Shown: positions 28,925 through 31,214 of the stretch, piece after piece | How the letters are laid out: the number at the start of each line of letters is the position of its first letter | Numbering within the stretch: the stretch's first letter is position 1 | Assembly: GCF_044324785.1 (NCBI RefSeq) | Contig: NZ_CP172127.1 | DNA: 64,000 bases | Strand: one strand, 5' to 3' | Source: Escherichia coli | GTDB lineage: Bacteria; Pseudomonadota; Gammaproteobacteria; Enterobacterales; Enterobacteriaceae | Program-made: the position numbers and the translations under genes | Notes under the pieces: model-generated | What the model saw: only the letters and a program-made list of their open reading frames with translations | What the model was told of the DNA's origin: nothing | Database searches by the model: none

Positions 28925-29044
28925 TGTAGTTTCCCTGTACTGATAGGTGTTGAGTGCCATTGTAGTGCGATAAGGGTAAGTCATAAACCAGAATTATGTG
29001 AAGCTATGCGTTGCTGCCGCTAATCATTAGCGTTATAGTGAATC

Positions 29045-29290
29045 CGCTTATTCTCAGGGCGGGGCGAAATTCCCCACCGGCGGTAAATCAACTCAGTTGA
29101 AAGCCCGCGAGCGCTTTGGGTGCGAACTCAAAGGACAGCAGATCCGGTGTAATTCCGGGGCCGACGGTTAGAGTCCGGATGGGAGAGAGTAACGATTCTG
29201 TCGGGCATGGACCCGCTCACGTTATTTTGGCTATATGCCGCCACTCCTAAGACTGCCCTGATTCTGGTAACCATAATTTTAGTGAGGTTT
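29045..29290 (+). ncRNA. FMN riboswitch (RFN element) and ribB leader
   Basis: Conserved RFN core AGGGCGGGGCGAAATTCCCCACCGGCGGTAAA...AGCCCGCGAGCGC...CAGATCCGGTGTAATTCCGGGGCCGACGGTTAGAGTCCGGATGGGAGAG directly upstream of ribB. Confidence 0.85.
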
Positions 29291-29297
29291 TTTTACC

Positions 29298-29951
29298 ATG
29301 AATCAGACGCTACTTTCCTCTTTTGGTACGCCTTTCGAACGTGTTGAAAATGCACTGGCTGCGCTGCGTGAAGGACGCGGTGTAATGGTGCTTGATGATG
29401 AAGACCGTGAAAACGAAGGCGATATGATCTTCCCGGCAGAAACCATGACCGTTGAGCAGATGGCGCTGACCATTCGCCACGGTAGCGGTATTGTTTGCCT
29501 GTGCATTACTGAAGATCGCCGTAAACAACTCGATCTGCCAATGATGGTAGAAAATAACACCAGCGCCTATGGCACCGGTTTTACCGTGACCATTGAAGCG
29601 GCTGAAGGTGTGACTACCGGTGTTTCTGCCGCTGACCGTATTACGACCGTTCGCGCAGCGATTGCCGATGGCGCAAAACCGTCAGATCTGAATCGCCCAG
29701 GCCACGTTTTCCCACTTCGCGCTCAGGCTGGTGGTGTACTGACGCGTGGCGGCCATACTGAAGCGACTATTGATCTGATGACGCTGGCAGGCTTTAAACC
29801 GGCTGGTGTGCTGTGTGAGCTGACTAATGACGATGGCACGATGGCGCGTGCACCAGAGTGCATTGAGTTTGCCAATAAACACAATATGGCGCTCGTGACT
29901 ATTGAAGACCTGGTGGCATACCGTCAGGCACATGAGCGTAAAGCCAGCTGA
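29298..29951 (+). CDS. ribB: 3,4-dihydroxy-2-butanone 4-phosphate synthase
   Basis: 217 aa; [42 protein letters not shown]... Confidence 0.96.
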
Positions 29952-29982
29952 AAACCGCTGCTTAATTTACTGCCTTAATCAA

Positions 29983-30020
29983 GAAACCGAAGTTGTAGCA
30001 GGCTTCGGTTTTTATTTTTC
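29983..30020 (+). terminator. ribB rho-independent terminator
   Basis: gaaaccgaagttgtagcaggcttcggttt hairpin followed by TTATTTTTC. Confidence 0.7.
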
Positions 30021-30212
30021 CCTGCTATGTAAGATGTTAATTCCGCTTCTCTTTCTATGAGAAAATTTCATTAATATCAGGCATTCTTTTTCATTATGAT
30101 CAAAATCATATAATTGTTCCGTTATTATGCGACCATATGAATATATCCGAAAAAGGATATGTGAAATTTATGCGCTAAATGTTTAGTATTGTTAAATATT
30201 AAGGGTAAAAGG

Positions 30213-30383
30213 ATGTTTATCGCCTGGTACTGGATTGTATTGATTGCTCTGGTTGTGGTGGGTTATTTCCTGCATTTGAAACGATATTGTCGGGCGTTTC
30301 GCCAGGACAGAGACGCCCTGCTTGAAGCGCGGAACAAATACTTAAACAGTACGAGAGAAGAGACAGCCGAAAAGGTAGAATAA
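30213..30383 (+). CDS. Small (56-aa) single-TM protein of unknown function
   Basis: ATG at 30213 preceded by aagggtaaaagg; MFIAWYWIVLIALVVVGYFLHLKRYCRAFRQDRDALLEARNKYLNSTREETAEKVE; one N-terminal TM helix and a charged tail. Confidence 0.5.
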   Translation: MFIAWYWIVLIALVVVGYFLHLKRYCRAFRQDRDALLEARNKYLNSTREETAEKVE

Positions 30384-30440
30384 GACTTTAGTGAAGCTGA
30401 CAGAAGTTGTCCATGCGCTGGACAACTTCTGATGTTGCTT

Positions 30441-31214
30441 TTAACCAATTCCCGCCGTTTGTAGCAGCACTAAACTGAATCCCATCACTGACATTCCACA
30501 TAGTACGCCATAGCTGGGGTTATTATTGGGGTCAATCTCTTTGGCGAGCGGCATTAATTCATCAACCGAGAGCGCCACCATAATTCCTGCAACCGCCGCC
30601 ATGATTGCCGCCATGACCACCGGAGAAATCATGCTACCGAGGATTAACCATGCCAGCACACCACCAAGAATTTCTGCCAGTCCGGAAATCCCCGCCCACA
30701 GAATCGCGGTACGTTTCGATCCTGTTGCAGCGTAAACCGGCCCTGCAACCGCCAGACCTTCAGGAATATTGTGCAACGCTACGGCCAGGGCGATACCAAA
30801 TCCCAGCTCCAGGTTGCTGCTCGCCGTGACAAAGGTGGCAATCCCTTCCGGGAAGTTATGCAGACTGATGCCGAGAGTGAGCAGAATGGCTGTGCGCTTG
30901 ATCGATTTTGGCAACGGCTGCACCGATTTTTGCATTAAATCCTGCGGATGTGCATGTGGCAACATGCGGTCTAGACCAAAATAGCCAAGCAGACCGAAGA
31001 TAAACATTCCATAACCCAACACAGGCGACATTCCTTCGGCGGCTAGTGCGGCAGGAAGCATTTCCATTAATGAGATGAGCAACATGATCCCCGCCGCAAA
31101 TCCTAGCGAAAACGCCAGTAAGCGGTTCGAGGGTTTTTGCCCGAGAACGCCGAGAAACGCGCCAATAAACGTGGCTGCCCCCGCCAGTATGGTCAGAATG
31201 AGAGGTACTGACAT
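30441..31214 (-). CDS. zupT: Zinc transporter ZupT (ZIP family)
   Basis: 257 aa from the Met of [22 protein letters not shown]...; track ORF has a 14-codon upstream extension. Confidence 0.93.

Follow-up and report, generated by a model that had tools for sequence, protein, structure and literature searches.

yqiD, a conserved and translated gene for a small, predicted single-span membrane protein between ribB and zupT of Escherichia coli

The window analysed here, a stretch of 64,000 nucleotides from one Escherichia coli genome, contains a short open reading frame between ribB and zupT. It runs on the plus strand from an ATG at position 30213 to a TAA at 30381–30383 and encodes the 56-residue product MFIAWYWIVLIALVVVGYFLHLKRYCRAFRQDRDALLEARNKYLNSTREETAEKVE. 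This product was 100% identical over 56 amino acids to YqiD (b4756) of E. coli K-12. In MG1655 the gene (3183381–3183551) is flanked by zupT (b3040) and ribB (b3041); gene order, strand relation and length were the same in the window, and the two coding sequences differed by 2 nucleotides only, both synonymous. In a megablast search with positions 29960–30440, the feature beneath the match in RefSeq E. coli genomes carried the annotation 'yqiD: protein YqiD'. By sequence identity and by its orthologous position on the ribB side and convergent to zupT, the gene belongs to the YqiD/DUF4051 family. The frame is almost certainly yqiD and a real gene for a small membrane protein. A version of 64 residues starting from a TTG at 30189 was unsupported, since RefSeq uses the ATG and the homologues from other genera all start with MFIAWYW. 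The features of the locus are collected in Table 1.

Table 1. Features of the yqiD locus, with positions in the 64,000-nucleotide window
Feature	Position	Strand	Evidence
ribB, upstream neighbour in this strain	29298..29951	+	ORF and annotation
ribB intrinsic terminator, separating ribB from yqiD	29982..30013	+	13-pair stem followed by a T run
Conserved non-coding upstream region (presumed promoter/operator and 5' UTR)	30088..30212	+	Cross-taxon identity
Perfect 16-bp palindrome TATGATCAAAATCATA, candidate -10 element and/or operator	30095..30110	.	Core TATGATC(A/G)AAATCAT kept in four close taxa
Shine-Dalgarno sequence TAAGGG, 7 nt 5' of the ATG	30200..30205	+	Direct reading; AAGG/GAGG there in 7/7 aligned taxa
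yqiD CDS, 56 codons and TAA	30213..30383	+	ORF list; identical to K-12 YqiD b4756; RefSeq 'yqiD: protein YqiD' at the homologous place
Codons 2-20, predicted TM helix FIAWYWIVLIALVVVGYFL	30216..30272	+	Hydropathy, conservation, AlphaFold2 helix with pLDDT 81-87
Codons 21-42, conserved basic juxtamembrane helix HLKRYCRAFRQDRDALLEARNK, presumably cytoplasmic	30273..30338	+	Most conserved segment of the family
Codons 43-56, variable charged tail	30339..30380	+	Sequence and length vary between genera; block of lowest pLDDT, 57
Hairpin between convergent yqiD and zupT, terminator-like for yqiD	30401..30431	.	13-pair stem with 6 G-C pairs, then ATGTTGCTTT on the plus strand
zupT (ZIP-family metal transporter), convergent neighbour	30441..31214	-	ORF and annotation

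The first-pass annotation had described a frame of 56 codons with a good ribosome binding site, an N-terminal transmembrane (TM) helix and a charged C-terminal part in AT-rich intergenic DNA, and all of these features are present. The GC content of the 261 bp from the ribB stop to the yqiD ATG is 31%, compared with 51% in the whole window. By its length alone, the ORF is not beyond chance, because 68 ORFs of at least 20 residues overlap the surrounding 4 kb. It rises above chance because of its conservation (dN/dS), its annotation and the published detection of the protein. The proposal that a genuine gene for a small single-TM protein is sited between ribB and zupT is supported. The accompanying remark that such proteins are often missed in annotation does not apply to this one, which is annotated as yqiD/b4756 in MG1655 and as 'protein YqiD' in RefSeq E. 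coli genomes. The gene is already known; it has been named, shown to be translated and included in the K-12 and RefSeq annotation for years.

The name YqiD was introduced by VanOrsdel et al. (2018; PMC6001520), whose Table 1 lists a sequence identical to the 56 residues of the window. YqiD was among 36 small proteins detected in that work by immunoblot after chromosomal SPA-tagging. It also appears in a subset of 13 proteins which had been positive in an earlier tetracycline-inhibited ribosome-profiling screen, and high levels in rich medium were reported for most of these 13. Both approaches proposed at first pass as a check of translation, epitope tagging and ribosome profiling, were thus positive, and both results come from PMC6001520. 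Furthermore, yqiD is listed among the genes with NAD-capped transcripts (PMC13273102), and it belongs to a set of four genes at which the expression effects of cis promoter variants agreed between GWAS, prediction and reporter assays (bioRxiv 10.1101/2025.06.10.658842). In enteroaggregative E. coli (EAEC) 042, orf3334 ('DUF4051 family') was one of three genes with raised levels in a mutant of aar, an AraC negative regulator (PMC5570504). Since strain 042 carries a yqiD-type gene beside zupT (L017, 5670-5840), orf3334 is probably that gene, judged by gene position, as the old locus tags are not displayed. Its rise in the aar mutant hints at an H-NS/Aar-linked control of the AT-rich promoter. 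Most other papers that mention 'yqiD' deal with the unrelated ispA homologue of B. subtilis, and the 'YqiD' paired with ElaB as a tail anchor in a reviewer's comment (PMC5525287) was taken as a slip for YqjD. In the accessible literature we found no experiments on the localisation, topology, partners or phenotype of YqiD.

Within E. coli the gene occurs as two alleles. The K-12-type allele was found by megablast in 4432 complete genomes, with one match each in nearly all of them. A second allele is present in 995 complete genomes, including those of Nissle 1917, LF82, ATCC 25922 and 042; its product shares 66% amino acid identity with the K-12 type, the synonymous sites are saturated, and it is annotated as 'hypothetical protein' only. 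The two sets cover all 5426 complete E. coli genomes, the 994 genomes without a megablast match carrying the divergent allele, and none of the complete E. coli genomes in the collection appears to lack yqiD. The dimorphic locus lies at 30213-30383 in the window, at 3001-3171 in L002 and at 5670-5840 in L017. In the four loci of the second allele that were viewed, a chaperone-usher fimbrial operon, which comprises four genes in 042, is inserted between ribB and yqiD.

A single-sequence search (phmmer, E-values down to 5e-30) retrieved 108 homologues of YqiD and a profile search 149. The named sources were Escherichia coli, E. albertii, Salmonella enterica, S. bongori, many Citrobacter, Kluyvera, Kosakonia and Phytobacter/Metakosakonia; further records were one 'uncultured Enterobacter' and one labelled Vagococcus sp. 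WN89Y. Except for the Vagococcus-labelled record, all named homologues belong to the Enterobacteriaceae and represent about seven genera. Several of them, including proteins of Citrobacter, Salmonella and Metakosakonia, are named 'DUF4051 domain-containing protein' by NCBI/UniRef; the precomputed Pfam domains of all homologues read '-', and the DUF4051 label thus rests on the names given by the sources. A hmmscan of YqiD against Pfam-A gave only sub-threshold matches to DUF2621, DUF4381 and DUF6526 and none to DUF4051, whose model is possibly absent from the release used. The search of NCBIfam gave nothing above the cut-off and only unrelated, TM-containing DUFs below it. An exhaustive profile HMM search of 1.84 billion cluster representatives returned only 24 proteins, and those that were read were all small and of the same architecture. 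Longer proteins containing the YqiD module were also sought among these representatives, with only small proteins, fragments and one fusion of 125 residues as the outcome. This fusion (L015, 1499-1876, on a single 2-kb Logan contig) consists of ZupT residues 1-72 followed by a YqiD-like part from about residue 14. It looks like an inversion between the convergent genes or an assembly chimera, which fits the BLAST comparison with normal loci.

Conservation across Enterobacteriaceae had been suggested as a check of the gene, and the reading frame is indeed kept in several genera. Family members are 53-74 residues long and diverge in sequence and length past residue 42. In 16 close homologues M1, I3, W5, Y6, W7, Y18, H21, K23, R24, A28, R30, D32, R33, D34, A35, L36 and K42 are invariant; in the widest alignment M1, A28 and R30 remain so, while I3, W5, R24, R33 and A35 are nearly invariant. 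Within the TM segment the conserved residues are W5, Y6, W7, G17 and Y18. For E. coli, Salmonella, C. freundii and one more distant enterobacterium, dN/dS over codons 1-43 (Nei-Gojobori) was 0.04-0.19 with dS of at least 1.1 or saturated. Such low values at saturated synonymous sites indicate that the yqiD frame is selected as a protein and place it under strong purifying selection.

The 19-residue window with the highest Kyte-Doolittle value in YqiD comprises residues 2-20 (mean 2.43), and residues 1-20 contain no charge. The TM segment given in Table 1 is called from this hydropathy calculation and not from a dedicated predictor. Residues 21-56 include 9 K/R and 7 D/E; within codons 21-42 the ratio is 7 K/R to 3 D/E, and windows starting at residues 21 and 22 have a hydrophobic moment of 0.52-0.55, indicating an amphipathic helix. 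AlphaFold2, run on an alignment of 15 sequences, modelled YqiD as a single continuous helix of residues 3-55 with modest confidence (mean pLDDT 74, pTM 0.35), best over the TM segment and worst in the tail. From these properties we infer that the N-terminal 20 residues would form one TM helix from the initiator Met. Since this helix begins at Met1, essentially nothing would protrude on the periplasmic side. According to the positive-inside rule, the predicted orientation is Nout-Cin, with the KRYCRAFRQDR cluster and the rest of YqiD in the cytoplasm. The Arg-rich juxtamembrane helix is the most conserved part of the protein, and A28 and A35 are spaced by one heptad; this helix together with the TM segment is therefore the likely working surface.

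The intergenic regions on both sides of yqiD define its transcription unit. Between the ribB terminator and the hairpin downstream of its stop codon, yqiD is monocistronic and is not co-transcribed with zupT; it has a conserved upstream region and a terminator hairpin of its own. When both E. coli alleles, Salmonella and C. freundii were compared, approximately 125 nucleotides upstream of the ATG showed 71-79% identity versus 47-63% at the third codon positions of the CDS. Because its identity exceeds the third-position level, this non-coding stretch is constrained. The sole promoter-like site found on the plus strand, a sigma-70-like TTAATA-18-TATGAT, is located at 30071-30100, and its -10 hexamer is overlapped by the palindrome at 30095-30110. 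A second invariant upstream block, TAAATGTTTAGTAATGTTAAAT, lies immediately 5' of the Shine-Dalgarno sequence.

Several known regulatory elements were considered for this region and rejected. The best Fur and Zur boxes upstream of yqiD matched at 12/19 and 13/23 positions, respectively, which is within the background of the window. An FNR site within the palindrome (8/10 to TTGAT-N4-ATCAA) was discarded as well, as 34 matches with at most 2 mismatches occur in the window and 32.8 are expected. A structured leader or riboswitch was not supported: the consensus fold by RNAalifold had 2 compensatory pairs and an energy of -5 kcal/mol, and folding of the single sequence gave a z-score of -1.7. A scan of 29000-30600 with Rfam found no sRNA or antitoxin family at threshold, but only an FMN riboswitch and sub-threshold noise. 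The FMN riboswitch (RF00050, 121 bits, 29046-29194) is the known and expected one upstream of ribB. Among the sub-threshold matches was STnc240, a Salmonella sRNA candidate, at 29950-30020 (29 bits compared with a gathering score of 55, E 0.077). The stretch spans the stop codon of ribB and its terminator, and an RNA derived from the ribB 3' UTR may account for it.

The synteny check proposed at first pass showed that adjacency to zupT is kept at homologous loci. The stops of yqiD and zupT are about 57-58 bp apart in the window. A Zip-family gene convergent to yqiD was found at a distance of 0-65 bp wherever the homologous locus extended far enough for the neighbour to be assessed, namely in the second (B2) type of E. 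coli, in Salmonella, in C. freundii, on a distant enterobacterial metagenome contig and next to a 41%-identical homologue; on the metagenome contig the stops of the two genes overlap by 4 bp. The other flank of yqiD is formed by ribB in most loci, by the fimbrial operon in the second E. coli type and by assT-dsbL-dsbI in Salmonella. The yqiD-zupT neighbourhood is a hotspot of rearrangement and insertion. In some E. coli the assT-dsbL-dsbI genes separate ygiD from ygiC, and in Salmonella they precede yqiD; the side of the yqiD-zupT-ygiD block on which they lie differs by lineage (L001, 4732-5481; L017, 690-3858; L005, 1-2601). They are missing from the window, where ygiC follows directly after ygiD.

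The best reading is that yqiD, a real and translated gene transcribed on its own, encodes a bitopic inner-membrane protein of 56 residues, for which we tentatively favour an accessory mode of action. The N-terminal TM helix would anchor YqiD in the inner membrane in Nout-Cin orientation, and the Arg-rich juxtamembrane helix and the TM segment would provide a binding surface. Through this surface YqiD may bind a larger inner-membrane protein or complex and modulate it, having no activity of its own. Such a modulator role is drawn by analogy with AcrZ or MgtS and is put forward tentatively.

The AcrB efflux pump has a small bitopic partner in AcrZ, a protein of 49 residues; the partnership is demonstrated by structure, and AcrZ is co-regulated with acrAB by MarA/Rob/SoxS. 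AcrZ and YqiD are both small enterobacterial proteins in which an N-terminal TM helix is followed by a cytoplasmic helix, predicted in the case of YqiD; they share no sequence similarity, and the likeness is architectural only. MgtS (31 residues) and MntS (42 residues) are small E. coli proteins which act on metal transporters, and yqiD adjoins a metal transporter gene. However, neither is homologous to YqiD, and both are induced by the relevant metal signal (through PhoPQ and MntR, respectively), whereas the search upstream of yqiD gave no metal-regulator box. Judged by its hydropathy and helical model, YqiD is predicted to share the single TM segment of small modulators of the AcrZ/MgtS/KdpF type. 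The co-transcription or co-regulation with a transporter gene that characterizes such modulators was not observed for yqiD, which is convergent to zupT, has its own upstream region and is separated from zupT by the hairpin. ElaB, YqjD and YgaM (DUF883) resemble YqiD in being short and helical, with a single TM anchor in the inner membrane and a charged cytoplasmic helix. Unlike YqiD with its TM segment at the N-terminus, they are C-tail-anchored, about 100 residues long and ribosome-associated; classification of YqiD as a DUF883 tail-anchored protein was rejected on account of its N-terminal TM segment and the lack of a Pfam hit to DUF883.

Three other modes of action were considered for the protein. 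YqiD could be a membrane-tethered basic helix that acts on anionic lipids, RNA or ribosomes, or on YqiD itself as a homo-oligomer. The Arg-rich and amphipathic nature of the conserved segment is consistent with this idea, and the heptad spacing of the invariant A28 and the near-invariant A35 would be compatible with helix-helix self-association. The only hits in a profile search of the PDB, to the helical DNA-binding protein GapR/UPF0335 (E about 0.02), point in the same direction, but they are non-significant, and the match spans no more than 26 profile positions, among them the end of the TM segment. As the data give no pointer to ribosomes or nucleic acids, we consider a tethered basic helix of this kind rather unlikely.

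Gene order suggests ZupT as the sole candidate for a partner, although a weak one. As a dedicated accessory or regulator of ZupT, YqiD would pack its TM helix on the transporter, contact a cytoplasmic loop with its basic helix and tune metal uptake. Small proteins such as MgtS and MntS regulate metal transporters in E. coli, and the convergent pairing of yqiD with a Zip gene persists where the other flank consists of the fimbrial operon or of assT-dsbL-dsbI. If true, a partnership with ZupT would explain why yqiD stays by zupT while its other flank is rebuilt. Passive adjacency is equally expected, because insertions would seldom hit the gap of approximately 60 bp that separates the two genes but would readily hit the long AT-rich spacer upstream of yqiD. 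ZIP transporters are also far more widespread than the named YqiD homologues with their approximately seven enterobacterial genera and one Vagococcus-labelled record. Regulation offers no link between the two genes either: their promoters are separate, the hairpin between them argues against co-transcription, and no convincing Zur or Fur box precedes yqiD. In addition, constitutive expression has been reported for zupT (Grass 2005, cited in PMC7567609). For these reasons a role of YqiD as a dedicated ZupT regulator seems distinctly unlikely.

In its size, single TM helix and charged tail YqiD resembles type I toxins of the Hok, Ldr and TisB type. In a toxin-like system of this kind the expressed peptide would harm the membrane, an antisense RNA or an sRNA binding to its 5' UTR would restrain it, and the conserved upstream region would be the RNA target. 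The conservation of this region above the neutral level could be read in this way, as could a weak promoter-like site on the minus strand (30413..30385). However, neither a cognate antisense sRNA nor a structured leader was found by the Rfam scan of 29000-30600 and by folding of the leader, although an undescribed sRNA may exist. The gene behaves as a core gene, present as a single copy at a fixed chromosomal place in essentially all E. coli, and its most conserved part is the polar cytoplasmic helix and not the hydrophobic segment. Moreover, type I toxins normally occur at a very low protein level, whereas YqiD belongs to the 13 proteins positive by both immunoblot and ribosome profiling, and the tagged protein was readily detected in rich medium (PMC6001520). 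A toxin-like peptide is therefore very improbable. Finally, the view that the frame is a chance ORF in intergenic DNA which serves only as promoter, terminator or UTR and yields no protein could draw on the number of ORFs of similar size in the six frames, on the AT-richness of the region and on the failure of Pfam and NCBIfam models to match above cut-off, but it is refuted by the tagged protein expressed from the chromosome, the positive ribosome profiling, the dN/dS values at saturated synonymous sites and the retention of frame, start and length class in at least six genera.

For the already known gene yqiD, the present analysis adds the range of the family, a subset of the Enterobacteriaceae, and a map of constrained residues, which places the constraint in the Arg-rich juxtamembrane helix and not in the tail. 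If YqiD did act on ZupT, this helix would gate or stabilise the transporter, and YqiD would have no described precedent as a small-protein regulator of a bacterial ZIP transporter. The residue map, the upstream palindrome and the pairing with zupT are starting points for finding the partner and the regulator of YqiD.
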